From positions 65,157 to 129,156 of the IMG/VR virus record IMGVR_UViG_3300029288_007050: a stretch of 64,000 nucleotides of DNA; one strand, written 5' to 3'. This stretch comes from a virus. Taxonomy: Duplodnaviria; Caudoviricetes. A model generated the notes under the pieces. The model had not been told where the DNA came from and made no database searches. It worked only from the letters and a program-made list of their open reading frames with translations. A program made the translations under genes and the position numbers. Positions 29,195 through 44,352 of this stretch are shown in pieces (within the stretch, counting starts at the first letter, position 1; each line of letters begins with the position of its first letter).

Positions 29195-30676
29195 TTATTT
29201 TTTGTTAATGTTTTCAATAGCAAAGTCTCTTCCCATCGTTTCAAACTTTTCTAAGAAATACTCGTCATCTTTCAATTCTACTGATTTTTTCTTGATTTTG
29301 TCTTTAACAGATTGAGGAGTTTGTTTAGCCGGTTTTTTCTGTTTATCGTATTCTTTTTTCTTTCCAGACTCGAATGCTTTAAGAGCATCCTTTTCAGTCA
29401 TTTCTTTAATTTCAAGTCCAAGTATTTCTGCAACTTCATTACTTAAATTAGTCATGAAAGAAGGAGTAATAACAGTCGGATCTTTTTTAATGATAGATTC
29501 AAATAGTCTAACAAGAATTCTTTCTGTATCTGTCTTCAAAGGCATTAGTTTTATCTTAGGATAGCTTCCGTTTTTGAAGTTCCAATCGATAAGTGGAGCG
29601 ACTGCCCATTCATTTAAAGTGTCTTCCATTGATTTCATTACAGATTGAAGCATCTGGATAATAAACGTTGACTGAGTCGTATATCCACTACCATAAGTAT
29701 AGTTATAAGTAGACTTCGATCCAAGCTGAGTAGCTTGTGTAAGAGTTGAAAGAGCGATTTGAGAATCATGATGTTCGATGAGTTTTAATACATCATATCC
29801 AGCAGAAGCTCTGTCAACTTCAAGCTCAAATCCCGCTGGCAAAGTTATTCGTGAATTTGCTCCGATCGATTCTACTGCTTCTTCTGCTTTTGAAACTTCT
29901 GTTTCTGAAAAAGGCTTGCCGAGTTTTAGAATTTTAAGACCCACTGCATCGATTTCAGCTTTCTTATGCGCTAAATAATAAAGCTTATGTTTTTTATCAT
30001 AATGATACCAAGCTGTTTTCAATATCGATTCTCCATATAAAGGATGTTTCTCTCTTTGAAAAGTAAATAATAAACTTTTTTCTGGAGGTATATCTACATT
30101 AACCGATTTATTTCCAAACGTAGCTGTTTGATGTGCTCCAAGAAAACCTCCATTTCTATCTGCTCTTAAGCGAATTGTGCTAGCGTCTCTCGGTGCTAGT
30201 TTTTTCCAACCGATTAAACCTTTATGTTTTCCTTCCTTTATAATCTGAGGTACTTTTTCATAAAAACGAAAACCTTCGAAAATCGCTCTAGTCATGTCTG
30301 CTATAATAAATGGTAGAGGAGTAGACATGCCACCGCTATATTGTGGACCCAAAAAAACAGATTCAATAAAATCTCTTTCACCGTTGTCATTTTCGCTTGG
30401 CAATATTTTTATAGGTGCAGATTCAATAGGTAGAGAAAAAAGACGCGTAATAGCTCTGACAGTACCGTCATTATCTTGCATTGTCAAATAATTGTCAATA
30501 GTAAGTTTATCTGGTCTTTCTTCATCTTCGTAAGAACCTATTGTCGCAGAAGTTCTAACACCAAGTTCTTCCATCATTTGTCTGACAGATAGAGCGGGTG
30601 CATTTCTATCTTCTCGATGTGTTCTTTTTTTGGGTTGTGCTTTGAGACGATCTGTTATGAATGAATAAAATGCCAT
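29195..30676 (-). CDS. Portal protein (DUF935/Mu gp29-like)
   Basis: FEGFRFYEK, LAPR, HPLYGESIL, IEHHDSQIA, PLIDWNF; position upstream of the protease. Confidence 0.85.
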   Translation of the reverse strand: MAFYSFITDRLKAQPKKRTHREDRNAPALSVRQMMEELGVRTSATIGSYEDEERPDKLTIDNYLTMQDNDGTVRAITRLFSLPIESAPIKILPSENDNGERDFIESVFLGPQYSGGMSTPLPFIIADMTRAIFEGFRFYEKVPQIIKEGKHKGLIGWKKLAPRDASTIRLRADRNGGFLGAHQTATFGNKSVNVDIPPEKSLLFTFQREKHPLYGESILKTAWYHYDKKHKLYYLAHKKAEIDAVGLKILKLGKPFSETEVSKAEEAVESIGANSRITLPAGFELEVDRASAGYDVLKLIEHHDSQIALSTLTQATQLGSKSTYNYTYGSGYTTQSTFIIQMLQSVMKSMEDTLNEWAVAPLIDWNFKNGSYPKIKLMPLKTDTERILVRLFESIIKKDPTVITPSFMTNLSNEVAEILGLEIKEMTEKDALKAFESGKKKEYDKQKKPAKQTPQSVKDKIKKKSVELKDDEYFLEKFETMGRDFAIENINKK

Positions 30677-30900: not shown

Positions 30901-31013
30901 CTTTTTCGCAATTGTCTTTTTTCTGGTTTTTTTATTCATGATATTTTACTTTTATTTTCTTCGAAACCAGAAAACTCGGTTCTTGTTTTAGCATTCAGAA
31001 AAATAGAGTAGAT

Positions 31014-31319
31014 CTACTCTTCTGCTTCGTCAGAATCTAACTTGTTGAGAATAGCTTTCTTGACGACAGATTTTATCAATACCTGATAAATAACAGTAGC
31101 ACTACCAAAAATAGCGCCGATGACTGCTAAGCTTTCTGGAGGAAGTAAATTGATCAATATACCTATTCCAGCCAAAGCGAACGATATCGCTAACAAGACA
31201 AGCTGTACGCCTAAGTCTCCCCATCTTGGAGATATAGAATCTTTAATCCATTTCTTTAAAAGACCGATCAAGACGACTGCTATGATCGAAGAACCACCAA
31301 TAAATAGTGAAATATCCAT
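31014..31319 (-). CDS. Holin-like membrane protein (3 hydrophobic segments)
   Basis: Three hydrophobic helices and a charged C-terminus. Confidence 0.55.
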   Translation of the reverse strand: MDISLFIGGSSIIAVVLIGLLKKWIKDSISPRWGDLGVQLVLLAISFALAGIGILINLLPPESLAVIGAIFGSATVIYQVLIKSVVKKAILNKLDSDEAEE

Positions 31320-31331
31320 AGTGTTATTTAG

Positions 31332-31571
31332 TTATTTTTTCTGTTCGACCTTTTTGTCTTTAAAAAATCTCACTTGCACATAAGCTGATATAATAGACAA
31401 GGGAATTATCACAAAAATAATAGCCATCCAAAACGGAGTCTTAGTAATTCTTCCGACCTGAAACATAATAGAGTCTTCAAAGACTCCAAATAAAATAAAG
31501 GGTATAGAAGTTGTGATTATTGCCCGTAGCATTTTTAGTTCTCTTATTATACTATTTGGCAGTTCGTCCAT
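31332..31571 (-). CDS. Small membrane protein
   Basis: Two hydrophobic segments. Confidence 0.55.
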   Translation of the reverse strand: MDELPNSIIRELKMLRAIITTSIPFILFGVFEDSIMFQVGRITKTPFWMAIIFVIIPLSIISAYVQVRFFKDKKVEQKK

Positions 31572-31648
31572 AAATTTTAAAAAATATGATTTGAAGAAAA
31601 TAATAGTTTGTTAAAAACAGCAGTCAAAATCTATGTCTCAGTTATTGT

Positions 31649-31987
31649 TTAATTAATTGCTTCTTCTAAAGAAGTCTCAGTTATGTGTTCAGCTTCTTCA
31701 TCAGACACGACTAATTCGTAATCACCGAGAACAAGAGTAGTGATGTGGCTCAAAGTGTCTGCGACTTCGTTGCGAATTAAATCTTTGATCGACTTTTTTT
31801 GCGTACATTCTGGAAAAGATGCATCTATAATCGTTAAAATTCTTCCAGCTAAAAATCTTATTTGAGAAGAAACAGCTTTACCGGAAAGAGATTTTTCGTC
31901 CATTTTCTCAGCAAATTCTCCAGTTGATATTGTTTTTTTGACTATACTTTGACTTTTTTCTCCAACTTTACCAACTTTGTTTGACAT
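31649..31987 (-). CDS. Hypothetical protein enclosed by an inverted-repeat stem
   Basis: 112-aa ORF flanked by arms 31603-31627 and 32011-32035. Confidence 0.7.
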   Translation of the reverse strand: MSNKVGKVGEKSQSIVKKTISTGEFAEKMDEKSLSGKAVSSQIRFLAGRILTIIDASFPECTQKKSIKDLIRNEVADTLSHITTLVLGDYELVVSDEEAEHITETSLEEAIN

Positions 31988-32083
31988 TGACTTATTAACG
32001 TTGACTCGACTTGACTGCTGTTTTCAAAGAACTATGTTTTTACAAATCATTCTCTAAAAGTTGGAGTCAGAATTAGTAGTTGT

Positions 32084-32548
32084 TTATCTTTCGTCTATGT
32101 CTGACGAATTTCTAACGACCTTTACTAATTCGTAAGCAATAATATTGTTTTTGATTCTTTGCCAAGTTCTTTCAGAATAAGAACCATCAGCTAAATCATT
32201 TCCTCTCAACCAGTCTTCACCAGCTCTTGATTTTCTAACAGAAGATGCACAACCAAGATAACCATTATCACCACTTCTCGGCTGCAGCATGTTGTCTGAA
32301 TCTTTAGTGATAGATTCTCCGCTATCAGGCAATTGTGCTCTAAGCGAATAGTAATGTTCTTTTGTGAAGATTTTCAAACGAATTTGTCCTTGTTTATAGT
32401 CAGAAATGAAAATAAAATCTTCAAATTTTCCAAAACGACTAATTTCTTTAAGCCAATTTGTTAAATCCGGAAATTCTTTGAGAATTTCTAAATTCCATTT
32501 TGGCTGATGTTTTCTAGCAACATCGGGCACTTCTAACGGTTTTGACAT
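32084..32548 (-). CDS. Hypothetical protein enclosed by an inverted-repeat stem
   Basis: Likely start MSKPLEV at 32548; arms 32051-32069 and 32569-32587. Confidence 0.7.
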   Translation of the reverse strand: MSKPLEVPDVARKHQPKWNLEILKEFPDLTNWLKEISRFGKFEDFIFISDYKQGQIRLKIFTKEHYYSLRAQLPDSGESITKDSDNMLQPRSGDNGYLGCASSVRKSRAGEDWLRGNDLADGSYSERTWQRIKNNIIAYELVKVVRNSSDIDER

Positions 32549-32604
32549 TGTTTTTTTTATACCGTTCATGACTCCAACTTTTAAAGAACTATTTGAACGA
32601 AATT

Positions 32605-32749
32605 GTTCTCTGAAGCAGAGACACAATAATGCCGAGTCGACGGCAGACTTAATTCATATTGGTTCCGTCTCTGCTGTTGGCGGTTGACTCATAAAGAGTC
32701 GTAAACCCTCTTAAAGAACCTATCTAATTATGTCTCTTCTTCAAAGAAC
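32605..32749 (-). ncRNA. Stem-enclosed structured RNA candidate
   Basis: GTTCTTTGAAGAAGAGAC/GTCTCTGCTTCAGAGAAC closing stem around ~105 nt containing hairpins. Confidence 0.45.
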
Positions 32750-33006
32750 TATTTTTTAGTATTTATATATATTTTTAAATCGACTATAGCTTCTTTAATC
32801 GTTTTGATGTCTCCCCTTACTTCTCTCAGATCTTCACAGAATTTATTATAATGATTATTTAGCTGAAGATTGATTTCAGCTAATTCTTTTTCATAATTAA
32901 CTAAAGCATTGTTGTTTTTTCTTGACTTCATGTAGTCAAAAATCTTCTGAATCGCGAAAAGAACAACGACAGCTAAAGCACCAAGATTTGCATATTGTTC
33001 GACCAT
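32749..33006 (-). CDS. Membrane-anchored coiled-coil protein (holin-like)
   Basis: N-terminal TM segment followed by heptad-rich tail. Confidence 0.6.
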   Translation of the reverse strand: MVEQYANLGALAVVVLFAIQKIFDYMKSRKNNNALVNYEKELAEINLQLNNHYNKFCEDLREVRGDIKTIKEAIVDLKIYINTKK

Positions 33007-33036
33007 ATCAAAATAAGGTTAAGTGTTATTAATTTT

Positions 33037-33065
33037 ATTTTACTACTTTATTTTTCTTTTGTAAA
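33037..33065 (-). promoter_or_regulatory. sigma70-like promoter
   Basis: TTTACA-17-TAAAAT on the minus strand. Confidence 0.5.
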
Positions 33066-34497
33066 ACGCGCACGCTTTTCAAAGAAGATGCCGTCTAGAG
33101 ATTTTTTGAGCCCGCCGCTATTTTTTTGAATAAATTAATTTTTCGCTCTAGAAAAAATTTATCGCGCTGAGATAGAGTTGCTGTCTTTGTCTGGCAGAGA
33201 TTCTCTTTATCTGCTTCAAAGGGTGTTGCCATATCTTACCACCTTTCGAATACACTTTTTTCTACGCAATATAGAAGAGATCCTATGAGGCGTCAAAATG
33301 AGCTAGTTTTTTTATTACGAAACAAATGTGGAGAAAGTAAAGGAATTCCTTTACAAAAAATAGAAGTGTGTTGTAGTAAGCAGGAACTTATTATAAAACA
33401 AATATGGTAAGATGTAAATGTTTACAAATGCCTTGAGATGTTATGAAATAAGCTGAGATATTATTACGATACAAACAAGAAGATACGTAAAGGAATAGAA
33501 TATCAAATAAAAAATATAGATTCTTTAATCTAGAGACGTAAGCACGCTAGCGAAAGAGACGAGCGCAAAAAGTAAATGTGAAGATAGTTTAGCAGAAGTT
33601 TTATTTCGTACTCGCAGAATCTAAGAGAGAAAAAGCTACTGACTTTATTCGTAAAGAATATCTTTAACAAAAATAAAAATCTTTCAAATAATGAGAATCA
33701 AGACTAGCGACGAGTTAGCGAAGGATAAAAGTATTCTCGTGCGATATGCTCGAATAGTCTGGTGAGTCTTCGGAAAAAATCCTGTGAGACTCGCGTGTGT
33801 TGAAAGAATCAAGCGCGATTAACGAGTGCGAGCAGAGTAAATCATAAGAAACTTGCGATTGCTCTAGTGCAAATGCTTTAGATATTATTGATTATTCATT
33901 TATATAGTATATTGTTTGTCTAGCAGCGTTCTAGACACTCGAGCGCATATTGTAGATAGCGTTCAGAGCTTGGTTTCTCATTCAAGCTGATAGTTTATAT
34001 GGTAAAATAAGAAAGACTTTAATACTTATTACATAACATTCTGGCGCAAATGTAAATAGTAAATGTGTGAGAAAACAATTCGAAGCGCCCTTAAAACGCC
34101 CAGCAGAGAGATAAAGTCTCTCTCAGAGCGTTAGAGAGCGTTTAGCTTGCTCTAGCGTACCACGCTCTGCCATATCTAAGCCAAGTAAAGTCTCTTATCC
34201 ATATATTCTATCAGCTCTGCTATCAATATCTAAAAGTCTCTACGAATCAACTTATTACAAAACATTCGTGCGCAAAAGTAAAATATCGCTTGAGAGCTCA
34301 GTCTTTTAAAGAAACTGACATAATATCACTAGAGACTTGCTTTCTCTACAAAGCGTTATATGAACTCTAGCGCCTACTCCAGAATGCCTATCTAAACGCT
34401 TTCTAAGCCTTGAAAAACAAGAGACTTGATGTCTCCTATTACTCAAAAATGAGCTCTCTACAAACGGTGTAGCGCAAAAGTTATTAACAGTTAGACC

Positions 34498-34525
34498 TTT
34501 ACAATATGGTATGATATGGTATTAT
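34498..34525 (+). promoter_or_regulatory. Early promoter driving the cassette array
   Basis: TTTACA-16-TATTAT with TG extension; upstream AAAAGTTATTAACAG shared with the 43260 promoter. Confidence 0.7.
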
Positions 34526-34654
34526 AAAAATAGGAAGAACACGGCTGTTAACAACTCGGGGGACTTCATCCAACCTTGTGAATATCCCTCGCCCCAACTG
34601 AACGAAGGATGGCAAAAACGCATCGCGGTCAATGAGTGTACTTTGTCAACAAGT

Positions 34655-35143
34655 ACTGGAGAGATATTCTGGAACTTGATGAAATGTTATCCCTAAAAAA
34701 TAAAACACTTTTATGGAAAACATTACTCAAGTAGAAAACTTATCGTTCAAAATCATCGACGAAGTTAAAAAAGACATCAAGGAAATCGTTCTCAAAAAGA
34801 ACAACGGGCGATGCGACAAGATAATTTTCGAAATGCCCAAAATATCTCAAGCTCAAATAGATAAAGCTTACAACGGCAAGCCCGGTTGTATGTGCGGGTG
34901 TCTCGGAAAATACTCAGTTCTGAAATCTTCTAAAGAAACTGAAGAACTCGGTGAAACAGTTTCGCCTCGCTCAGTCAATTTCGTTTTAAACAAATTGATT
35001 AAAGAAGCTAAACGCGGAATTGAAGTCATCGGAGACTACATTTACTTGATGGACATAGAAGATAGGCGCTACGCCCTTTATCTAAAAAAATAATCAACTA
35101 ACTAAGATAACATTTGCATTGAGTTTCAAAATATCTCTCCAGT
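34655..35143 (+). repeat. Cassette 1 inverted-repeat stem
   Basis: ACTGGAGAGATATTCTGGAACTTGATGAAATGTTATC / GATAACATTTGCATTGAGTTTCAAAATATCTCTCCAGT. Confidence 0.95.
34713..35093 (+). CDS. Hypothetical protein (cassette 1)
   Basis: 126 aa with a GKPGCMCGCLGKY motif. Confidence 0.75.
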   Translation: MENITQVENLSFKIIDEVKKDIKEIVLKKNNGRCDKIIFEMPKISQAQIDKAYNGKPGCMCGCLGKYSVLKSSKETEELGETVSPRSVNFVLNKLIKEAKRGIEVIGDYIYLMDIEDRRYALYLKK

Positions 35144-35249
35144 CGCTAAGAATATAACGAAGAGTTAGAATAGAACGGGGAGTGTTAGATAATAACACTC
35201 GGTGAGGGGAAAATCTAACAGAGGGGTTATTATTCTTATGCAAATCCAA

Positions 35250-35539
35250 CACCGGAGAGATATTCTGGAACTTGATTGTAAACCTTACTAAAAAATATGT
35301 ACAAAATCCTTCAAATCAGTTTCGTAATTTTAGCACTCGTTGGTTTCATATTCGCGATGAACTTCGGAATCAACAAGACTGAAATAAACGAATGCAACAA
35401 GTGGAACAAAGAAGCTAAAGAATATACTGGTTATTACTTTACGCAAAATCAAATTGACCAGTGCGACGCGCACGAGATTACGTTAACGTTAAAATAAAAT
35501 ATCATTAAAACAATCAAGTTTCAAAATATCTCTCTGGTG
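35250..35539 (+). repeat. Cassette 2 inverted-repeat stem
   Basis: CACCGGAGAGATATTCTGGAACTTGATTGT / ACAATCAAGTTTCAAAATATCTCTCTGGTG. Confidence 0.95.
35297..35497 (+). CDS. Small membrane-anchored/secreted protein (cassette 2)
   Basis: N-terminal hydrophobic segment and two Cys. Confidence 0.75.
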   Translation: MYKILQISFVILALVGFIFAMNFGINKTEINECNKWNKEAKEYTGYYFTQNQIDQCDAHEITLTLK

Positions 35540-35639
35540 AAGAGACACTATCAGACTGCGACTGGTACAATCCCCAGAGCAGCGCACTCGAACTGAAGTG
35601 TAAAGAATGCGAAAGCATCTCTCAAAAATAGAGTGTTTA

Positions 35640-35924
35640 TCTTGGCAAGGCATTCTGGAACTTGAAGTTAGAAACAATAGATATGCCAAAACTATCTGAA
35701 GCAGAACAATTTATAATTGGCCAAGCAATGGCTGAAATCAAAAAAGAAAAAGACGTTTCTATCGTCAGAGAAAAAATCTTAGGCACTGTAGTCGGCGTTA
35801 ACAAAAAAGCAGTCAAAATCTTTGATGAATTAGTCGCATCGAAGAGAAAAGCAGGTTTAATAACCTGACTCAAACAATTTAGAATTAAATATCTAACTTC
35901 GAGTTTCAAAACGCCTTGCTAAGA
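35640..35924 (+). repeat. Cassette 3 inverted-repeat stem
   Basis: TCTTGGCAAGGCATTCTGGAACTTGAAGTTAGA / TCTAACTTCGAGTTTCAAAACGCCTTGCTAAGA. Confidence 0.95.
35683..35868 (+). CDS. Hypothetical protein (cassette 3)
   Basis: ATG at 35683 (MPKLSEAEQ) lies inside the stem. Confidence 0.7.
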   Translation: MPKLSEAEQFIIGQAMAEIKKEKDVSIVREKILGTVVGVNKKAVKIFDELVASKRKAGLIT

Positions 35925-35926
35925 AT

Positions 35927-36350
35927 CTAGAGGGAGAATCTGGAACTTAAGTCTCTGAATGTTCTACAACAATGCAAAAACTCTTAAAATATAGAAAAAA
36001 TAAACGTGACATTACAATCGGTACTTCGTTCGCGAATTTATCTATCAATACAAATCTTGATAGACTCGTCGAACTTCTGGGACAAGTTTCTTTTCTTGGC
36101 TCGGGAGACGACAAAGTTCAATTAGAGTGGGCTTTCTACAAATCTCCAACAAGAGTCTTTACAATTTACGACTACAAAGAAAACAAGCCAATCCACGAAA
36201 TTACTGACTGGCACGTAGGCGCAAAAGGTTTTGATAGAGAAGAGATTGTAGACGAGCTCCTAAAAATCGGTTTTACGAAAGACGAAATCGTCTTAGAGAA
36301 TTAAAATTAAACATCATATTCAGAACTTGAGTTTCAAATTCTCTCTCTAG
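35927..36350 (+). repeat. Cassette 4 inverted-repeat stem
   Basis: CTAGAGGGAGAATCTGGAACTTAAG / CTTGAGTTTCAAATTCTCTCTCTAG. Confidence 0.95.
35972..36304 (+). CDS. Hypothetical protein (cassette 4)
   Basis: 110 aa with DDKVQLEW..FTIYDYK..WHVG. Confidence 0.75.
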   Translation: MQKLLKYRKNKRDITIGTSFANLSINTNLDRLVELLGQVSFLGSGDDKVQLEWAFYKSPTRVFTIYDYKENKPIHEITDWHVGAKGFDREEIVDELLKIGFTKDEIVLEN

Positions 36351-36363
36351 TAAAAACACTTTG

Positions 36364-36755
36364 AGTGCTCGTCGGTGAGACAATCTGGAACTCAATAGAC
36401 TCGTCTGAAATTCTACAAATTTATGGTTCTAAAATTGACTTTAACAAAACCTATCAACGGCTACTGGGACGGCGGACCAAAACAAGTCTTCAATTACTCA
36501 ATTGACGGCGAAGTCCAGAGAGATTCCAAAGGGCAATACGTAAGAGTCGGAAGCTGGGAAGCAAATTCTTGGTTTCACGTCGCTGTCGGTAAAACAGTGA
36601 AACAGACTCTAGCAAACGCGAGACGCCATCTTCTCGCTGGTTTAAACAAGATGGCGAAAAGCCAGCTCATTGGCTACAAATTTGAGTACGTCGAATAATT
36701 ATAATTAAAAAAGACGACGAAGTTGAGTTTCAAATCGTCTCACTGAAAGAGTACT
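36364..36755 (+). repeat. Cassette 5 inverted-repeat stem
   Basis: TCGGTGAGACAATCTGGAACTCAA / TTGAGTTTCAAATCGTCTCACTGA. Confidence 0.95.
36423..36698 (+). CDS. Hypothetical protein (cassette 5)
   Basis: 91-aa ORF filling the loop. Confidence 0.75.
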   Translation: MVLKLTLTKPINGYWDGGPKQVFNYSIDGEVQRDSKGQYVRVGSWEANSWFHVAVGKTVKQTLANARRHLLAGLNKMAKSQLIGYKFEYVE

Positions 36756-37297
36756 AAACTAGAGTGCTAGTAGAAAGTCCAGATAGTCTTCTACAAAAAA
36801 GTGCATTGCAATTATAGCTTCTCAACAAATTTCATCACTTTGCTTTCGCGCTCGTCAATTCTTAACAGAATTGTATGAAGATAGAAAGCAAAAAATGAAG
36901 CAAACCGCAGCCTCTACGACTTTCACGCTAGAAGCGTTCGAGCTCGTTCTCAGAAAAGAACAAATCTTCCGAAATCGCAATTTTGAGCTCTAAAGCGTCC
37001 TGGAGACGAACGCTAAATCAAAAGACAAGGTGTAAGAGAGCCAGAGAGAAGGTTTTAAGAGAGAGATGAAATAAACCTCAGCTAAGAATCAGAGAGATTC
37101 TAGAATGTTTAAAATGAGAATCAGAGTCTTCATCTTACTAATTTTCTTTCTCTTTCTTGAGAGCTATTACTATGATAAGCTTAGAGATGGATAGATGCAA
37201 TACAATTTGCATTTACTTTCGTCCGAGCTCTGTTCAATCTTGCAGGGCATCGTTAGAAGGACAATCTGGAACTCGAACATAAGCTCTAACTACAAAA

Positions 37298-37462
37298 ATG
37301 GAAAAACAAAAAGAAGACATAACAGTTGCTTACAATATCTTTTCAAATGGTAGAATCGTAAGCAGCTTTGAAGTTTCGGGCAAAGACGAAGATGAGTGTC
37401 AAGAGAAAGCCGAACAAGAATACGATGACTTCGTATCTAGTCTCAGTCTAGAAGAAGAGTAA
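37298..37462 (+). CDS. Small acidic protein (cassette 6a; not in ORF track)
   Basis: MEKQKEDITVAYNIF...VSGKDEDECQEKAEQEYDDFVSSLSLEEE*, 54 aa. Confidence 0.7.
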   Translation: MEKQKEDITVAYNIFSNGRIVSSFEVSGKDEDECQEKAEQEYDDFVSSLSLEEE

Positions 37463-37475
37463 AAAACTTACTTCT

Positions 37476-37670
37476 ATGACTACATACCTCGTCCCAAAAA
37501 TACCTGGTGTGCCCATAATTAAAATGGACAAGAAGCGAATAAGAGAATTGAGAAAAATTCTCCGCTCCGGCCAGGAAGTTCATTGTTTAGATATGCCTTC
37601 GTATCTAGCAACTCTCCAACAAGCAATTGAAATCGGAGCAACAAGCAAAATCGTCAAAGACTTCGCATAA
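37476..37670 (+). CDS. Hypothetical protein (cassette 6b)
   Basis: 64-aa ORF. Confidence 0.65.
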   Translation: MTTYLVPKIPGVPIIKMDKKRIRELRKILRSGQEVHCLDMPSYLATLQQAIEIGATSKIVKDFA

Positions 37671-37733
37671 CATTTTATATCATTAACAATTTAGAGTAAA
37701 ATTCGAGTTTCAAATCGTCCTTCTAACTTAAAA

Positions 37734-38018
37734 GCTTAGAAGACAGTTCTGGAACTCAAGAGTACACAAAACGATGCAAATAACAACTATCGTTGTATCT
37801 GACAGCGAATACTTTTCATTCTTTCAATATCCTTCTTACGAAAAAGCGTTTAACAAAGTAAAAGAATACGAAGCGATGGGATACGAAGCAAAAATCGTTA
37901 CGAACTATCCAATCGAAAAATCAAGTCGAGAAGCATATCAAAAATTCGCTCCATCTGGCGAATTTATAGATTAAATTAAAATTAACTTATTCTTGAGTTT
38001 CAAAACCGTCTTCTAAGC
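37734..38018 (+). repeat. Cassette 7 inverted-repeat stem
   Basis: GCTTAGAAGACAGTTCTGGAACTCAAGAGTA / TATTCTTGAGTTTCAAAACCGTCTTCTAAGC. Confidence 0.95.
37774..37974 (+). CDS. Hypothetical protein (cassette 7)
   Basis: 66-aa ORF filling the loop. Confidence 0.7.
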   Translation: MQITTIVVSDSEYFSFFQYPSYEKAFNKVKEYEAMGYEAKIVTNYPIEKSSREAYQKFAPSGEFID

Positions 38019-38043
38019 AGAGGAACTATAATTGCAGTGCACT

Positions 38044-38900
38044 GCAGTTAGAAGAGCATTCTGGAACTCGAGGAGCTCATAATAAAATGAATGAACTTAT
38101 CGAAAAAATTAAAAAACCCGATAACTTCAACTTCTATTATATGCAAAGCATTAGAGGTGAAGACGGGATTGAGCACATTCGAAAAGAAAAGGCGCGCTAT
38201 TTTGTCACACAAGATGGCAGAATAGCTAGATATGCTAGACGATTGCATAAACGTGGTTATGCTATAGATGATTTGAGCAGAATCATAGTTGAAGACAAGA
38301 AAAGAATTAAGACTCCAGAACAAAAATGGAACGAAAGCTGGTTTAAAGTTTCAAAGAGGTTAGAAAAATCTGGCCTCTATGAAGACTTGTTAAAGAACGT
38401 ACATCTTGGTTTAGAGATTGGATATGAAAAAATCCAATTAGCTTACAATTTGTACTGGGAAGATGATAAGAATCTCAGCTACGTCGAAAATCAGAAACGA
38501 AGAGACGAGGAAATCAAAAATCTTGATGAAAGACTTTTGATAGACAGCCATCCGAATACTGAAATCATCTGGTATATGAAATATCCTGCCAAAGTTAAAA
38601 AAATGAATTTTGGCAAACCGAGATGGGATGACGGTTCGACTAACAAAGAAAAACTTCAGCTCATCGCAAAAGCGCTCAAAGAGAAAAAAGAAGTATCAGT
38701 CGGTGGTCGAAATGGTTACGATATTTCATTCTCGTACAATCCAAAAATAAACAAAGCGTGGTATTCTGAAGAATACAGAGGATGCGGAAACGGCCATTAC
38801 TATCTTGCATTAGATGCAACTCACGCTTTATTTTACGAGGATGATTAAAGATTATTAACTAACGAGCAACCTTCGAGTTTCAAAACGCTCTTCTAACTGC
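38044..38900 (+). repeat. Cassette 8 inverted-repeat stem
   Basis: GCAGTTAGAAGAGCATTCTGGAACTCGAGG / CTTCGAGTTTCAAAACGCTCTTCTAACTGC. Confidence 0.95.
38087..38848 (+). CDS. Hypothetical protein (cassette 8)
   Basis: 253 aa; C-terminal AWYSEEYRGCGNGHYYL. Confidence 0.8.
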   Translation: MNELIEKIKKPDNFNFYYMQSIRGEDGIEHIRKEKARYFVTQDGRIARYARRLHKRGYAIDDLSRIIVEDKKRIKTPEQKWNESWFKVSKRLEKSGLYEDLLKNVHLGLEIGYEKIQLAYNLYWEDDKNLSYVENQKRRDEEIKNLDERLLIDSHPNTEIIWYMKYPAKVKKMNFGKPRWDDGSTNKEKLQLIAKALKEKKEVSVGGRNGYDISFSYNPKINKAWYSEEYRGCGNGHYYLALDATHALFYEDD

Positions 38901-40396
38901 GTCGGAAGAGTATTCTGGAACTTGAAAAAGCTACAAACAATCTATGAATTGGTTCGAAGTATCAAAAGAAGGATTGAAACAGCTTCAGTTAGGAAAACCT
39001 AAGCATTACGTTGCTAGAGAGCTAGTACAGAATGCTTGGGATGAAAACATCAAAGTCTGCAAATTCGTGTCTCTCTGGGCAAACGGCGTAGCATCTATCT
39101 CAGTAGAAGATGATAGTCCCGAAGGCTTCCGAAATCTCCGCGATGCTTTCACATTGTTTGCGCCTACTTACAAACGAGCAAATCCTGAGAAAAGAGGACG
39201 TTTCAATTTAGGAGAAAAACAAGCTCTCGCAATTTGCGACAAAGCTAAATTAGAAACAACAAAAGGAACTGTTCTGTTTGAGAAGACGAGCCGAACACAA
39301 AGCTCCAAGAAAAGAGATGCTGGAAGCAAAATATCTGTAGAACTGAAAATGTCTAAAACTGAATATGAGGAAATGCTGGAGATAGTTAAAAACTATCTCG
39401 TACCAGAAAACATAGAGTTCTTAGTAAACGGAGAAAAGATGAAGTTTTCAAAACCTTTCAAATCAATTAGGGTTTCTTTACCCACTGAAATTGAAGAGAA
39501 TGGTGTTCTAAAGAAAACTCTCAGAATGGCTGATGTCAATATCATCAAATCAAACGGGAAAACTTTTCTTTATGAGATGGGAATACCCGTCGTAGAGATT
39601 GAATGTCAATTTGGAATTGATGTTCAACAAAAAGTACCCCTTTCGATTGATAGAGACAGCGTTCCACATTCCTACATATCTATTCTCTATGCTGAAGTTC
39701 TCAATGCTACATACGAAGAAGTAGATGAAGAAAATTCATCTCAAGTTTGGGTCAGAGAAGCAACAGGACACAAAAGAATTATTCCAGAAGCTGTGAAATC
39801 TATCGTCAATAAAAGATACGGTGACAAAGTAGTCGTTGCGAATCCATTCGACCGAAATTCAATTGATGACGCAATTTCAGCTGGTTATAAAGTTATCACT
39901 GGAAACGAATTATCAAAAGAAGAATGGTCGAACATCAGAGAATCAGAAGCAATTAAATCTTCTTCTGATTTGTTTGGTTCTGGTACAACTTCTTCAACAC
40001 CGTATGAAGCTGACGAGAATATGAAAGCAGTTGCAAAATTAGCAAAGAAGATAGCAAAAAGATGTCTCAAAATCGACATCGCTGTCCAATTTGCTAAATG
40101 GAGTGGAGTTAGTGCACAATATGGTAGCAGAACTCTTACTTTCAACGTTCAATCGTTGGGAAAAGGATTCTTCAAACCGGCGTTGTCAGCCAACACTTTA
40201 GATTTGATTATCCACGAAATCGCTCACGAACACGGACAACACACAGAAAAAAGCTATCAAGAAGCAATCACAAGAATTGCTGGAGAATTAGTTATCATCG
40301 CGTTAGAAGAGCCAAAGTTTTTCGATTGCACTTAGTCGACGCAATCAAATTTATCATTAACTTAGCTTCTTTCAAGTTTCAAAGCGCTCTTCTGAC
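38901..40396 (+). repeat. Cassette 9 inverted-repeat stem
   Basis: GTCGGAAGAGTATTCTGGAACTTGAAA / TTTCAAGTTTCAAAGCGCTCTTCTGAC, ~1.43 kb apart. Confidence 0.93.
38944..40335 (+). CDS. GHKL (HATPase) ATPase fused to an HEXXH zincin-like domain
   Basis: RELVQNAWD, VEDD..GF, RGRFNLGEK; C-terminal IIHEIAHEHGQH. Confidence 0.8.
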   Translation: MNWFEVSKEGLKQLQLGKPKHYVARELVQNAWDENIKVCKFVSLWANGVASISVEDDSPEGFRNLRDAFTLFAPTYKRANPEKRGRFNLGEKQALAICDKAKLETTKGTVLFEKTSRTQSSKKRDAGSKISVELKMSKTEYEEMLEIVKNYLVPENIEFLVNGEKMKFSKPFKSIRVSLPTEIEENGVLKKTLRMADVNIIKSNGKTFLYEMGIPVVEIECQFGIDVQQKVPLSIDRDSVPHSYISILYAEVLNATYEEVDEENSSQVWVREATGHKRIIPEAVKSIVNKRYGDKVVVANPFDRNSIDDAISAGYKVITGNELSKEEWSNIRESEAIKSSSDLFGSGTTSSTPYEADENMKAVAKLAKKIAKRCLKIDIAVQFAKWSGVSAQYGSRTLTFNVQSLGKGFFKPALSANTLDLIIHEIAHEHGQHTEKSYQEAITRIAGELVIIALEEPKFFDCT

Positions 40397-40398
40397 TA

Positions 40399-41275
40399 AA
40401 TTCGGAGAAGTATTCTGGAACTTAAAAGCAGGACAAAACAAATGAAGAAAAAGTATCAATTAGCATTGAGTCATACGACTGACTTAGAAGCGAAAAACGA
40501 ACAAGAAGCAGTGAAGAAGTATTTTGAGTCAATTGCGCAAAACAATATGGACTTAGAAAACTTCATAACGTCAAATCTTAAAATTGATAGAGCTTTTTTA
40601 GCTAGTCAACTTTCAGGTAAAGCGTTAGATAAAGTTCTCGAAGATAATTACGGTATCAATATTGAAGATGACTTCGGTTCAGTCAGAGATAGAGACGAAG
40701 CTCCATTCTTAGATATTGAAGCATTCGGTCTAGAAATCAACGAGAATCAGATGTCTTGGAATCTTGATTATCCAAACAGACAACTCTTCTTTACGTTTCC
40801 CCACGATGGTTCTGGAAGCAGACAGATAGGAATTTGTATCACGAACAAAAACAAACTAGTGAAAAAGCTTCAAAAAGATTTGAAACTACCAGAAAGAATT
40901 GCGAAAGCAATGAGAAACGAAGACATCTCTTTGAATTTCAGAACACAGTATTTCGGGGGAGGGGATGGAAGAACATACTTCGAGTTTTCTGACAACACTG
41001 AAAAAGGAATCCTTGGTGTCACAAGAGTTGATGGAATCAAGAACGTAAAACTAATCTATCTCGAAGAAAAACTTCAAGAATGGTTCGACGAAAATATCGT
41101 GAATCGTTTATTGAAGACATTTCAAGCAACCTATGATTATCTTACGTCGAAAGATGCAATCATAGAAACGTTAGACGCTAACGAGTTTATGTTTACGAAA
41201 GACGGTCATCGTCTGTAGACAAACATTATCAATTTAACTTCCTCGCTTTTAAGTTTCAAAATGCTTCTCTAAATT
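40399..41275 (+). repeat. Cassette 10 inverted-repeat stem
   Basis: AATTCGGAGAAGTATTCTGGAACTTAAAAGC / GCTTTTAAGTTTCAAAATGCTTCTCTAAATT. Confidence 0.95.
40442..41218 (+). CDS. Hypothetical protein (cassette 10)
   Basis: 258 aa; C-terminal YDYLTSKDAIIETLDANEFMFTKDG. Confidence 0.8.
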   Translation: MKKKYQLALSHTTDLEAKNEQEAVKKYFESIAQNNMDLENFITSNLKIDRAFLASQLSGKALDKVLEDNYGINIEDDFGSVRDRDEAPFLDIEAFGLEINENQMSWNLDYPNRQLFFTFPHDGSGSRQIGICITNKNKLVKKLQKDLKLPERIAKAMRNEDISLNFRTQYFGGGDGRTYFEFSDNTEKGILGVTRVDGIKNVKLIYLEEKLQEWFDENIVNRLLKTFQATYDYLTSKDAIIETLDANEFMFTKDGHRL

Positions 41276-41717
41276 GATTGAGTAGACATTCTGGAACTTG
41301 ATGTACAGAAAGCAAAAAACAAATCCTATGAAGTTATTAACAAAAGAAATCATCAAAAGATTTGCTGAAGTCGGAAGTCAAGAAAACGAGAAAGACCCGA
41401 TTGTCATTGCAAAGTTCTTCAACCCGACGGGAGCAGGAACTTGGTATGCTACAGAATACGACCCGAAAGAAAAAATCTTTTTCGGATACGTTTCAATTTT
41501 CGGCGACCACAATGACGAATGGGGTTCTTTCTCATTAGAGGAATTAGAAAACGTCGAATGCAAAGCTGGTTTAAGTATTGAACGTGACTTACATTGCGGA
41601 GAGCAAAAGATAAGCGAGTTTAATATCCCATCATTGCGTTCATAAAAAATAAAAATCTAACGCTTTTTCTATCTAGTCGGATAGAAGTACTTCAAGTTTC
41701 AAAACGTCTGCTCAATC
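41276..41717 (+). repeat. Cassette 11 inverted-repeat stem
   Basis: GATTGAGTAGACATTCTGGAACTTGATGTAC / GTACTTCAAGTTTCAAAACGTCTGCTCAATC. Confidence 0.95.
41328..41645 (+). CDS. DUF2958-like protein (cassette 11)
   Basis: MKLLTKEI, KFFNPTGAGTWYATEYD, EWGSFSLEEL, IERDLH. Confidence 0.8.
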   Translation: MKLLTKEIIKRFAEVGSQENEKDPIVIAKFFNPTGAGTWYATEYDPKEKIFFGYVSIFGDHNDEWGSFSLEELENVECKAGLSIERDLHCGEQKISEFNIPSLRS

Positions 41718-41718
41718 G

Positions 41719-42352
41719 TTGAGTAGACAATCCGGGACTTAAATGAGAAAACAAATGCTTATCCAACTTTATCACGGCACTAACAACAATAACGCAAAAC
41801 GAATTCTAAAAGAAGGTTTCAAAGATAGAATCGAAAGCAAAGAGAAAAACTGGAAAGACGAAATAGCAAGCCAACCTGGTTTCGTCTATCTGACTCGTGC
41901 TTATCCATTTTTCTACGCGATGAATGCTGCTAACTCAGAAGATGAAGCAACAGTATTATTAGTTGAAGTCGACTCAGATGACTTATATCCAGATGAAGAC
42001 TTTCTTAGAGAAGTTCGCATTAAAGACAAAGATAAGAAAATCGACATCAGAGAGTTCAAAGAATACGGTTCGTTATCTCTTGAAAAACTTGGAAATGTAG
42101 CAATCCAGCCTTCGAAAATCAAACGCGTAATTGGCAGTAAATCTTTTAAGACGAGTGATATGATATGGTATAGCGACCCAGCAATGTCTATCTATAACTA
42201 TATGTTTCTGGGAAACTATTACCGAGAACTGACAGACACGTGGTGGAAAGGCGGAGACTGGAAAAAAATAAATCAAACAGAATCATTATTAAAATCGATG
42301 AAAAGGTCGAAGAAATCTTAACGCTCATTTGAGTTCCGAATTGTCTACTCAA
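41719..42352 (+). repeat. Cassette 12 inverted-repeat stem (compensatory core changes)
   Basis: TTGAGTAGACAATCCGGGACTTAAATGAG / CTCATTTGAGTTCCGAATTGTCTACTCAA. Confidence 0.95.
41755..42321 (+). CDS. ADP-ribosyltransferase-fold protein (cassette 12)
   Basis: LYHGT...ILKEG...GFVYLT...YA...VLLVEVD..DLYPDED. Confidence 0.6.
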   Translation: MLIQLYHGTNNNNAKRILKEGFKDRIESKEKNWKDEIASQPGFVYLTRAYPFFYAMNAANSEDEATVLLVEVDSDDLYPDEDFLREVRIKDKDKKIDIREFKEYGSLSLEKLGNVAIQPSKIKRVIGSKSFKTSDMIWYSDPAMSIYNYMFLGNYYRELTDTWWKGGDWKKINQTESLLKSMKRSKKS

Positions 42353-42395
42353 AGTAAGACGGTTATCCTGGAACTTAAGAACAGTATTAAAATCT

Positions 42396-42614
42396 ATGAA
42401 TGATATCATTCAAATTCCAATTGCTCATCCAAAATGTCATTTGGATGAATTGCGTAAAAAATTCAACGTGCCTGAAAAATACACTGACGAAGTGTTGCTA
42501 CAGGCGCTCGTAGGCATCGTCATTGATGACTATATGAATGTAGAAAAAATCGAGGCCGACAATCTTCAAGAAGTATTAACAGACGGCAAAATCGCCGACA
42601 GATATTTATGTTAG
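42396..42614 (+). CDS. Hypothetical protein (cassette 13a)
   Basis: 72-aa ORF. Confidence 0.7.
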   Translation: MNDIIQIPIAHPKCHLDELRKKFNVPEKYTDEVLLQALVGIVIDDYMNVEKIEADNLQEVLTDGKIADRYLC

Positions 42615-42745
42615 AAAAAACAATTGACGAAGTAATAAGCGACTTGATTCAATCATTCGATGACGAATTGCAAAATCTGACAAATGAAGAACTTGAAGAG
42701 AAGTACGAAGAAAGAATGGGAGAGGAAGTAAAAATCATCGCTTAA
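42608..42745 (+). CDS. Small acidic protein (cassette 13b; not in ORF track)
   Basis: MLEKTIDEVISDLIQSFDDELQNLTNEELEEKYEERMGEEVKIIA*. Confidence 0.65.
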   Translation: MLEKTIDEVISDLIQSFDDELQNLTNEELEEKYEERMGEEVKIIA

Positions 42746-42913
42746 TCAAAAAATAATTCTTAACGTCTGTTTCTTAAGTTCCGAGACAGCCGTCTTACGT
42801 AGAAGAGTCAAAAAGCTAGATAGATGAAATAATACAGAGACTGCAAGAAACAAGCGCTCTAGAACGCTATCAGAGCCAAGAGAAATCAAAGAGCTGAGTA
42901 TTATATCATAGCT

Positions 42914-43204
42914 TCTGAACTACTTTCTGGGACTTTTAATTCTGGTTAAGAAAAATGAAAAGAAAACTATTACATCTTAAATCTATCAAGACTCTAAAGT
43001 CATTAGAAAAAAATCTCAAGCAAAGATACGATGGTGTCGAGAAAAACATCAAGAAACTAGAAATCAAAAAAATAAAAATCTGGCAAGACATTAAAAACGT
43101 CGAAAATGTTATTGCTAAAAAAGAAGAATGAGATATTTTTAGTCGTCTATCTCAAAACATTATCAACTAATCACCAGAATTTGAGTCTCGCAAAGTAGTC
43201 CAGA
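42914..43204 (+). repeat. Cassette 14 inverted-repeat stem (degenerate)
   Basis: TCTGAACTACTTTCTGGGACTTTTAATTCTGG / CCAGAATTTGAGTCTCGCAAAGTAGTCCAGA. Confidence 0.75.
42955..43131 (+). CDS. Small basic coiled-coil protein (cassette 14; not in ORF track)
   Basis: MKRKLLHLKSIKTLKSLEKNLKQRY...AKKEE*, 58 aa. Confidence 0.6.
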   Translation: MKRKLLHLKSIKTLKSLEKNLKQRYDGVEKNIKKLEIKKIKIWQDIKNVENVIAKKEE

Positions 43205-43259
43205 CGAAATGATAAAATACATATTCTGAACGCTAAAAAGTTATTAACAGCTCAACCTA

Positions 43260-43287
43260 TTTACAAGGTGGTTGGATATGGTATAAT
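43260..43287 (+). promoter_or_regulatory. Early promoter
   Basis: TTTACA-16-TATAAT with TG extension. Confidence 0.8.
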
Positions 43288-43319
43288 ATAAATAGGATAA
43301 AGATAACGCACATTTCAAA

Positions 43320-43459
43320 GATAGGTTCTTGCTTCAATCTCCCTCGACAGAGTTTCAGATTCAAGAGTTTAAAGTTTTATACTCTCAGTTGGCTATCATC
43401 GTACTGTATAAATAACTCTTGTCTAAATAGCCCGGTGGAGATTAAAAGAGGAACATATC
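43320..43459 (+). ncRNA. Stem-enclosed ncRNA candidate A
   Basis: GATAGGTTCTTGCTTCAATCTCC / GGAGATTAAAAGAGGAACATATC closing stem; no ORF. Confidence 0.55.
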
Positions 43460-43464
43460 CTCTA

Positions 43465-43739
43465 GTAGTTCTCTAAAATCTGGTGTAGCATAATAACCCT
43501 AGACGGGTAATGCATATAGTGGACAACGTCATTACGATAGAATATGACGTAATCATATTCTTGAGAGTTAGGCGATAAGGAGTTGCAAATCCAAACTCAC
43601 ACGAACAATATGAATTAAAAACCTGCCACTATAATTAAGAGCTAAGAACTCGGTCTAATAAACTACTCAAGGGCACAAGGCAGAAGCTACGGTCATTCCA
43701 GCATCTGTCTCAAGGCCCCACCAGATTTTAGGGAATTAC
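43465..43739 (+). ncRNA. Stem-enclosed multibranch ncRNA candidate B (~275 nt)
   Basis: GTAGTTCTCTAAAATCTGGTG / CACCAGATTTTAGGGAATTAC; internal helices TATAGTGG/CCACTATA and ACGTCAT/ATGACGT. Confidence 0.6.
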
Positions 43740-43753
43740 GAAATAGCATTAAA

Positions 43754-43843
43754 TGATGTTCTCTTCAATTAAAGTATTTGTCCCAGGCTAAGTCATATAA
43801 TAATTGCTGGTGAGAACAAATACTTTAACTAAAGAGAATGTCA
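43754..43843 (+). ncRNA. Long hairpin / processing-stem candidate C
   Basis: TGATGTTCTCTTCAATTAAAGTATTTGT / ACAAATACTTTAACTAAAGAGAATGTCA. Confidence 0.55.
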
Positions 43844-43856
43844 AATCAACAAACGT

Positions 43857-44054
43857 ATGAAAACAATAATGAAAATAAGTTCTGGTAGAGAATATGTTGA
43901 AGTCGTGAAAGTTGATAGAAATTATATTCTTCAGACTCAACGTGGCTCTGTCCTTGTGAAGCGAGGCGAATTTGACGAAGAAGGCGTTCGTTTAATGGCA
44001 GAAACAATAAATGAATTGACTGAAGATTATGGTTGGAAAGAAATAAATCTCTAA
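43857..44054 (+). CDS. Hypothetical protein
   Basis: 65-aa ORF in the early operon. Confidence 0.6.
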   Translation: MKTIMKISSGREYVEVVKVDRNYILQTQRGSVLVKRGEFDEEGVRLMAETINELTEDYGWKEINL

Positions 44055-44064
44055 ATCTTCTGTT

Positions 44065-44352
44065 ATGATTAAAATTAAAATCACAAAAGAAATACCAGTC
44101 GAAAAGAAACACGGTGTAAAGATTGGAAGAGTATTCGACGCAATTATCAATCCGACAGAAATCAAGAAGTCAAAAGAATTATACATAAAAGACTATAATC
44201 AATTTGGAAGACCAATTTATGCACACATAGAAAACATTGACGCTTATGAATGGTTTTACAAAGGAAAAAATTATTTCTGGATACAAGGAGATACTGGAGA
44301 AGCAGTAAAAATCTGGGGAAACGAATGCAAAATAATTAAAGAAAATGAATAA
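44065..44352 (+). CDS. Hypothetical protein
   Basis: 95-aa ORF. Confidence 0.65.
   Translation: MIKIKITKEIPVEKKHGVKIGRVFDAIINPTEIKKSKELYIKDYNQFGRPIYAHIENIDAYEWFYKGKNYFWIQGDTGEAVKIWGNECKIIKENE

Follow-up and report, generated by a model that had tools for sequence, protein, structure and literature searches.

The window analyzed here, 64,000 nt in length (positions 65,157 to 129,156 of the IMG/VR record IMGVR_UViG_3300029288_007050), is the right half of the 129,156-bp record of an uncultured phage. Its predicted first operon (34655-43220, + strand) is an array of 14 cassettes, each consisting of one gene or gene pair between two arms that pair with each other across the gene. The 5′ arms carry the core TCTGGAACT and the cognate 3′ arms the core AGTTTCAAA, or variants of these, and the pairing is kept by compensatory changes in related phages. 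Very probably, the entity under selection is the folded sense-strand RNA. We consider it probable (roughly 60%) that the arms are processing stems of the kind known from ribosomal RNA (rRNA) operons, which would be cut by host RNase III to give each early gene its own messenger RNA (mRNA).

Arm pairing within the array

Complementary arms enclose the gene or gene pair in 14 of 14 cassettes, with 29 to 59 aligned columns per arm pair, at least 72% of them Watson-Crick pairs and at least 78% paired if G.U is included; the loops measure 219 to 1429 nt. An earlier note on this DNA had described such gene-enclosing arm pairs, and its positions, arm lengths, and loop sizes proved correct, as did its remark that cassettes 8 to 13 abut (neighbors there abut or overlap). 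Cognate arms have RNAduplex energies of −41.7 to −49.9 kcal/mol, compared to a mean of −23.0 kcal/mol for the 182 non-cognate pairs, and the best partner was the cognate one for 14 of 14 5′ arms and 14 of 14 3′ arms. With the core masked, cognate flanks paired at 16.3 of 20 positions and non-cognate flanks at 11.5, and none of 100,000 permutations matched the observed sum. The claims that the outer arm sequences match their own partner and that cognate arms pair better than shuffled ones are thereby borne out. Compensatory core changes, previously reported for cassettes 12 and 13, were found there and in cassette 14 as well.

The pairs are also recovered if no motif is assumed. An inverted-repeat scan of the whole window (at least 20 Watson-Crick pairs in 24 positions, 100 to 2000 nt apart) returned 18 hits, namely, 13 cognate pairs of the array, four others, and a cross-pair that joins cassettes 1 and 2; a shuffled 66-kb sequence gave 1 to 3 hits and the other half of the genome 2. 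Furthermore, minimum free energy (MFE) folding of four overlapping multi-cassette segments (1.7 to 3.3 kb) paired all 14 cassettes cognately, with 26 to 32 of 34 arm nucleotides in cognate pairs. In every case, a 3′ arm paired more weakly with the following 5′ arm than with its cognate arm, and such junction pairing was not chosen in the segment folds.

Covariation in related phages

The record is 83% complete and encodes tailed-phage proteins, among them the portal (29195-30676, − strand), a terminase, a major head protein, an RNA ligase resembling Rnl1, and a helicase. The 10-kb region had no megablast match among 50,697 phage records, viral-contig searches seeded with the proteins of cassettes 9 and 10 found nothing, and the portal protein has no cultured relative above ~30% identity. 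Relatives were reached by portal-seeded searches of IMG/VR and metagenomes; many come from landfill, groundwater, and digester-type samples. Arrays built in this way occupy the same place, upstream of the portal module and facing away from it, in L078, L129, L131, L133, L137, L145, L147, L165, L178, and other contigs, and the core family (family 1) amounts to 67 non-redundant cassettes from more than 10 related uncultured phages.

When 30 short cassettes of 11 contigs were aligned over a 30-bp helix, strong covariation emerged: 88.6% of the helix cells were paired, compared to 69% with shuffled partners and 30 to 50% in slid registers, two-sided changes occurred at 27 of 30 helix pairs, and none of 500 shuffles reached any observed measure, although the cassettes share ancestry and counts across them are therefore not independent. 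Twelve cross-phage cassette pairs with homologous genes (27 to 58% protein identity) contain 86 compensatory double changes and 29 pair-keeping single changes; 31 single changes in the same pairs lead from the paired to the unpaired state or back. The ortholog of the cassette 2 gene in L147 and that of the cassette 10 gene in L078 have compensated arms, and the genes homologous to that of cassette 4 in L129, L145, and L147 have different yet paired arms. Both the order and the content of the cassettes differ between relatives, with homologous genes carrying different arm sets.

In the distant relatives L180 (12800-15260, array sense, reverse complement of the locus), L154, L175, and L193 (~48 to 67% portal identity), early genes also lie in long-range stems, with unrelated arm sequences and no shared core. 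Coreless gene-enclosing stems are also present in some contigs that carry family-1 arrays. The gene-in-stem layout seems older than the TCTGGAACT family.

Helix anatomy, conserved core, and a sister family

With positions numbered from the first T of TTCTGGAACT, the helix spans about −14 to +15 in the profile of the 67 cassettes. Positions +6 to +9 covary freely (GACT/AGTC, AGCT/AGCT, AATT/AATT). Three positions have characteristic non-Watson-Crick pairs: C.A at +2 (53 of 67), G.U at +5 (48 of 67, otherwise G-C), and A.C at −1 (26 of 67, compared to 28 with A-U). Each core strand is a near-palindrome, which gives the duplex a pseudo-dyad between +3 and +4, and the C.A and G.U pairs are placed symmetrically about it. 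There are ~17 bp outside the dyad and ~11 bp inside, the footprint expected for one RNase III dimer, and we infer from this geometry a putative RNase III cut site at the pseudo-dyad. The core of ~12 nt and its non-Watson-Crick positions are kept across phages with ~65 to 85% identical portals, while the flanks turn over.

A second stem family lies on the minus strand at 31603-32754 and consists of three units (31603/32035, 32043/32595, and 32600/32754), the last of which encloses a non-coding RNA of ~100 nt. The wobbles of this sister family fall on its own (minus) sense strand. Its 5′ arms carry the boxA-like motif (A)GTTCTTT(A/G)A. The published consensus of boxA, the NusB/NusE site of the Nus antitermination system, is GYTCTTTAANA (PMC5725501); a relaxed form, GYTCTTTRANA, matches two of the three sister 5′ arms (at 32022 and 32579, − strand), and only 32579-32589 fits the published consensus. 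The boxA-like motif is kept in the sister 5′ arms of 8 related contigs, down to ~50% portal identity. A higher-order stem is found in the array itself, where 36800-36823 pairs with 38020-38043 (+ strand; 21 of 24 Watson-Crick pairs, 23 of 24 nt paired in the segment MFE fold) and encloses a 430-nt gap region together with cassettes 6 and 7. Nested stems of a similar kind, each around two cassettes, are present in L178 (6004/7731, array sense, reverse complement of the locus) and L165 (13593/14895, same orientation). The boxA-like sister arms and the nested stem strengthen the parallel to rRNA operons. Outside the window, at G000:C1:5225-6148, a boxA-like long-range stem (AATGTTCTTTTAAAATTGAAGTCA with TGACTTCAATTTTTAGAGAACATT) encloses ~900 nt and ends just before a sequence resembling the start of a transfer RNA (tRNA), GGGCGCGTAGCTCAG.

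A core that persists while its flanks turn over might also be the site of a dedicated factor other than host RNase III, such as a phage early protein, an antitermination-type complex that loads on the 5′ arm and stays bound until the 3′ arm emerges, or an endonuclease-ligase pair that circularizes the messages. The boxA-like 5′ arm of the sister family and the Rnl1-like RNA ligase of the phage are in line with this idea. However, the family-1 core TCTGGAACT is not boxA-like and has no match to the consensus, the ligase gene is far away and of a type usually tied to tRNA repair, and no candidate protein has been identified. Moreover, the gene-enclosing stems of other relatives have no shared core, and hence the layout needs no such core sequence. 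We therefore regard a dedicated factor as very unlikely.

Which strand folds

That mismatches are mostly G-U on the sense strand, as claimed from the window before, depends on the positions that are counted. Over all stem positions, 120 wobbles are of the sense type and 108 of the antisense type, a nearly even count that holds no strand signal, and here the claim fails; the conserved A.C and C.A pairs would be wobbles on the other strand. Outside −1, +2, and +5, the claim stands: in the relatives, 104 sense G.U pairs compare with 39 A.C pairs, with the same direction at 11 of 13 loci (cassettes, 45 vs 9), and in the window alone the ratio is 20 to 6. The stems of unrelated sequence in the relatives have 48 sense wobbles vs 8. 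Composition does not explain the excess of G.U, since the sense strand is purine-rich and a purine bias would favor A.C if anything.

Genes, promoters, and the putative transcription unit

Each of the 67 cassettes has the longest open reading frame (ORF) of its loop on the sense strand, and this ORF fills a median of 83% of the loop. Its start codon typically lies 17 to 36 nt past the core (mostly 20 to 25 nt), which leaves it a few nucleotides outside the helix on the inner side, and its stop codon typically 15 to 35 nt ahead of the 3′ core; both arms fall in intergenic sequence. Most cassette genes have no obvious Shine-Dalgarno sequence. The array is bounded by two strong promoters, predicted, like the terminators, by consensus scans: a sigma-70-like promoter at 34498-34525 (+ strand; TTTACA, 16-nt spacer, TATTAT, TG extension), ~120 nt before the first 5′ arm, and a strong sigma-70-like promoter at 43260-43287 (+ strand; 11 of 12 matches, with TG) at the end of the stem-bearing unit. 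These are the only sites on the + strand with at least 10 of 12 matches and a TG extension. Inside the array, the scans found only chance-quality promoter matches (9 of 12) and no convincing terminator, the two terminator-like hits on the + strand both being within ORFs, and past the promoter at 43260-43287 the inverted-repeat scan found no stems enclosing ORFs. A role of the arms as per-cassette promoters was rejected, as there are no promoter-quality sites in the arms or the array, and a role as intrinsic terminators was rejected because no T-run follows the 3′ arms.

Covariation, sense-strand wobbles, the co-orientation of all 67 ORFs, the fixed spacing from core to start codon, the promoter-bounded unit, and the segment folds all support the idea of the earlier note that selection acts on a folded single strand, most likely the transcript. 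A folded transcript need not be a cut one, though. The stems may form in the RNA and stay uncut, and each gene would then be closed into a separate folding domain, be it for insulation of cistrons, as a block to scanning or exonucleolytic RNases, or for stop-to-start re-initiation on a closed-loop message. The evidence for folded sense-strand RNA applies equally to such a clamp, the stop and start codons lie within ~15 to 35 nt of the same helix base, the genes mostly have no obvious Shine-Dalgarno sequence, and no phage RNase III gene was found. Nevertheless, we take an uncut clamp to be rather unlikely. A ~30-bp helix is a standard substrate of RNase III and the enzyme is present in nearly all bacteria, which makes it hard for the stems to escape cutting, and a clamp of purely structural function would leave the conserved geometry of the core pseudo-dyad without an obvious role.

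Two regions beside the array deserve mention. Between 33000 and 34650 lies a divergent control region of ~1.6 kb without long ORFs, with repeated leftward promoter-like units such as TTTGCGC..GAATGTT.TGTAATAAG and TTTACA/TATAAT at 33418-33390. The second promoter is followed by ~550 nt of non-coding sequence (43300-43860) with an inverted repeat (43461-43484 with 43720-43743, ~235 nt enclosed) and a local hairpin (43754-43843); it has no Rfam family and may be a leader or a non-coding RNA.

Cassette turnover at the DNA level

Contigs from four other landfill runs were compared with the region. One of them is without exactly cassette 7 (joint 37727 to 38020) and one without exactly cassette 9 (joint 38898 to 40402). 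In other contigs, the loop is replaced between the cores (35664 to 35900 in cassette 3 and 38068 to 38876 in cassette 8), and one joint connects the 5′ arm of cassette 9 with the gene of cassette 8 (38926 to 38087). Of the excised or inverted junctions for which the earlier note had proposed a search, whole cassettes missing or swapped at the arms were indeed seen and inversions were not: no strand-changing joints are listed in the four metagenome runs, and 0 of 67 cassettes are inverted.

These joints raise the possibility, akin to the alternative in the earlier note, that cassettes are captured, excised, or shuffled through the arms as single-stranded or cruciform DNA sites, in a modular exchange system that is integron-like or resembles the early promoter-stem-loop (PeSL) cassettes of T4-type phages, and that the RNA fold is incidental. 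The cassettes missing, swapped, or newly joined in the landfill contigs and the different content and order of cassettes in relatives agree with this view. In addition, the cumulative GC skew of the window has its minimum in the divergent promoter region, on either side of which lagging-strand synthesis could use the sense strand as its template. However, the 129-kb record has no tyrosine recombinase (PF00589), no serine recombinase, and no Y1 (HUH) transposase in searches that each included positive controls; no cassette is inverted, and there are no target-site duplications beside cassettes 2 or 7. The cores are outside the attC R″/R′ consensus, and loops as large as 1.4 kb do not resemble those of hairpin recombination sites known so far. 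The deletions end in the 3′ arms of neighboring cassettes, that is, in similar direct repeats, for which ordinary homologous exchange or slippage is enough. Finally, neither the spacing from core to start codon nor the confinement to one putative transcription unit has a DNA-level explanation. A function of the arms as DNA sites is therefore clearly unlikely. We rather read the cassettes as evolutionary modules whose turnover is a consequence of 13 to 14 direct core copies within 8.5 kb and not a selected function.

Two other DNA elements were considered and rejected. Inversion switches of the Hin/Gin or shufflon type do not fit the missing resolvase or integrase, the 67 of 67 co-oriented ORFs, and the lack of strand-changing joints among those listed in four runs. 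Miniature inverted-repeat transposable elements or terminal-inverted-repeat transposons do not fit a conserved part in the middle of the helix with varying outer ends, the lack of target-site duplications at cassettes 2 and 7, and the lack of a Y1 transposase (DDE families were not searched). Since no integrase, resolvase, or Y1 transposase was found, the "provirus" label of the IMG/VR record is doubtful.

The cassettes one by one

All cassettes are on the + strand. Cassette 1 (34655-35143; arms 34655-34691 and 35106-35143) contains an ORF of 126 aa (34713-35093); its duplex energy is −46.1 kcal/mol, and 32 of its 34 arm nucleotides pair cognately in the segment MFE fold. The 109-nt spacer between cassettes 1 and 2 (35144-35252) has a stem-closed fold of its own (−25.7 kcal/mol, z = −4.4) and may be a small RNA released by processing; the remaining spacers between cassettes fold no better than shuffles. 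Cassette 2 (35250-35539; arms 35250-35279 and 35510-35539) encloses an ORF of 66 aa (35297-35497), cassette 3 (35640-35924; arms 35640-35672 and 35892-35924) one of 61 aa (35683-35868), cassette 4 (35927-36350; arms 35927-35962 and 36316-36350) one of 110 aa (35972-36304), and cassette 5 (36361-36758; arms 36361-36395 and 36723-36758) one of 91 aa (36423-36698). The gap between cassettes 5 and 6 (36759-37251, ~490 nt) has no enclosing family-1 stem and no Rfam match; it contains possible ORFs at 36895-36993 (32 aa) and 37105-37194 (29 aa, hydrophobic).

Two ORFs (37298-37462, 54 aa; 37476-37670, 64 aa) share cassette 6 (37252-37727; arms 37252-37289 and 37691-37727). Cassette 7 (37734-38018; arms 37734-37764 and 37988-38018), which is missing as a whole from one of the metagenome contigs, holds an ORF of 66 aa (37774-37974), and cassette 8 (38044-38900; arms 38044-38073 and 38871-38900) one of 253 aa (38087-38848). 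In cassette 9 (38901-40400), the other one missing from a contig, the arms (38901-38933 and 40363-40400) have a weaker extension that overlaps the adjoining arms. Its 463-aa protein (38944-40335) has no Pfam or PHROG match; the nearest ESM Atlas clusters are viral, with HATPase_c_3 in 16 to 33% of their members, a weak lead toward a GHKL ATPase. Cassette 10 (40405-41269; arms 40405-40433 and 41240-41269, extendable to 40388 and 41286) encloses an ORF of 258 aa (40442-41218), and cassette 11 (41276-41717; arms 41276-41306 and 41687-41717) a DUF2958 ORF (41298/41301-41645).

The last three cassettes have core variants with compensatory change: TCCGGGACT/AGTTCCGAA in cassette 12 (41719-42352; arms 41719-41747 and 42324-42352; ORF 41743-42321, 192 aa), CCTGGAACT/AGTTCCGAG in cassette 13 (42354-42798; arms 42354-42397 and 42753-42798; ORFs 42396-42614, 72 aa, and 42608-42745, 45 aa), and TCTGGGACT/AGTCTCGCA, with the mismatch position kept as C.C, in cassette 14 (42898-43220; arms 42898-42946 and 43173-43220; ORF 42955-43131, 58 aa). 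Searches of Pfam and PHROG with the cassette proteins returned, apart from DUF2958 in cassette 11, nothing but weak matches to families of unknown function, and an Rfam scan of 31000-44200 with gathering and E-value thresholds gave nothing except a chance microRNA match.

Comparison with known systems

In rrn operons, leader-trailer helices around 16S and 23S rRNA are cut by RNase III, and boxA loads an antitermination complex (PMC10250234, PMC6582327). The array resembles them in the long-range pairing of the flanks of every unit, in helices of at least 20 bp, in the serial arrangement of units, in the nested higher-order stem, and in the boxA-like 5′ arms of the sister family. A long-range helix of at least 20 to 22 bp, as in leader-trailer stems, is present in 14 of 14 cassettes, and it is kept by compensatory change (27 of 30 pairs; 86 changes in homologous cassettes). 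Unlike in rrn operons, the enclosed genes code for proteins, 14 of them or their pairs follow in a row, and they belong to a phage; furthermore, every helix repeats a shared core with conserved C.A and G.U geometry, and cleavage is here a prediction.

Duplexes across hundreds of nucleotides are known from mRNAs as well. In Bacillus subtilis, mRNAs contain long-range RNase III duplexes whose strands are more than 100 nt apart (PMC11780869), and in Staphylococcus aureus the 5′ untranslated region of the icaR mRNA pairs with its 3′ counterpart in a duplex that is a target of RNase III (PMC3868564). Those cases are single, sequence-unrelated sites that are mostly repressing or destabilizing, whereas the stems described here are serial, covary, share a core, enclose every cistron, and leave the ribosome-binding region outside the stem.

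Among phages, the RNase III sites of the T7 early region (R0.3 to R1.3) are local intergenic hairpins in a polycistronic early transcript that are cut by the host enzyme. They share a conserved shape with non-Watson-Crick elements, and a polycistronic early transcript is also what we envisage here. In the array, however, the partners flank a gene and the segment folds prefer long-range cognate pairing over junction hairpins, so that the stems are not of the T7 type. Integron attC sites are local hairpins of 57 to 141 nt at the 3′ end of a cassette and need the IntI integrase. Integrons and the array have in common promoterless cassettes behind one promoter and imperfect inverted repeats with conserved cores, variable self-complementary flanks, and conserved unpaired bases. 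Here, by contrast, arms lie on both sides of the gene with loops of 0.2 to 1.4 kb, no integrase (PF00589) was found in the 129-kb record, and the cores TCTGGAACT and AGTTTCAAA do not fit RYYYAAC/GTTRRRY. PeSL cassettes consist of direct repeats of an early promoter and a local stem-loop (PMC2839356, PMC4122927). As in the array, repeated motifs flank small early ORFs of unknown function, and indels or replacements between strains break in the motifs; unlike PeSL cassettes, the array has no comparable internal promoters in the consensus scans and its repeats are inverted, cassette specific, and covarying, which sets it apart from that class. The locus is marked by a common core whose geometry is kept, by nested stems, by a sister family with boxA-like arms, and by direct population evidence of cassette turnover. 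A search of the literature available to us found no published description of gene-enclosing stem arrays in phages, and none of a serial, core-sharing, gene-by-gene arrangement of stems in a phage.

Model of early message processing

In our model, transcription from the promoter at 34498-34525 would produce one early RNA of ~8.7 kb. Each 3′ arm would pair co-transcriptionally with its own 5′ arm to a helix of ~30 bp, and the order of synthesis would favor cognate partners. The variable flanks around the common core would act as a private address, which would allow 14 helices to form without cross-pairing. One host RNase III dimer per helix would then make a staggered cut in the core, and each gene would become its own mRNA. 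The ends of the released message would be clamped by an inner stem of ~10 to 15 bp, with the start codon and the ribosome-binding region free, ~6 to 16 nt beyond the stem. Paired ends of this kind should shield each early message against exonucleases and make its fate independent of that of its neighbors. The repeated cores may double as sites of homologous exchange, with whole-cassette gain and loss between strains as the result.

Several points weigh against processing by host RNase III. The enzyme normally needs no conserved core of ~10 nt, and the conservation of the core may come from descent and recombination or from another factor. No RNase III gene was found in the 83%-complete record in searches with positive controls, and the sequencing runs listed as containing this phage are only DNA runs (landfill and groundwater) with no RNA run among them. 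The related contigs are in metagenome-assembled genome bins of five labels (Bacteroidetes, Nanoarchaeia, Saccharibacteria, Woesearchaeota, and Gammaproteobacteria), an inconsistency that makes the host call unreliable. The strand signal is not uniform, as A.C at −1 and C.A at +2 would wobble on the antisense strand; the GC skew minimum at the divergent region means that the sense strand may be the lagging-strand template on both sides, which confounds the strand bias; and the shared ancestry of the cassettes lessens the independence of the counts. Lastly, the cassette indels at the arms are DNA-level activity. The readings discussed above overlap and are not mutually exclusive, and the RNA-based ones all fall within the high probability given to selection on a folded sense-strand RNA.

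It is imaginable, if improbable, that the early operons copy the rRNA operon as a whole. A factor-binding 5′ arm would then be held at the polymerase until the 3′ arm is made, by boxA and Nus proteins in the sister family and by a separate factor on the core of the 14 cassettes, and each gene would enter its own helix during transcription, to be cut out as an mRNA with clamped ends or even as a ligated circle. If true, such rRNA-operon logic with a polymerase-held 5′ arm would be a way of maturing bacterial mRNA that is so far undescribed.

If the stems function according to our preferred reading, processing by host RNase III, this clade of phages matures its early messages as cells mature their ribosomal RNA, releasing each gene with its ends paired. 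Stability would then be set gene by gene, and message ends would be protected without terminators. The address-like flanks around a common core would provide a testable rule for the number of long helices that a single RNA can fold correctly. Nature supplies in the 67 arm pairs, which are mutually orthogonal, a parts list at hand for the construction of processed multi-gene transcripts in bacteria, and the repeated cores may explain the clean gain and loss of whole genes in the early modules of these phages.

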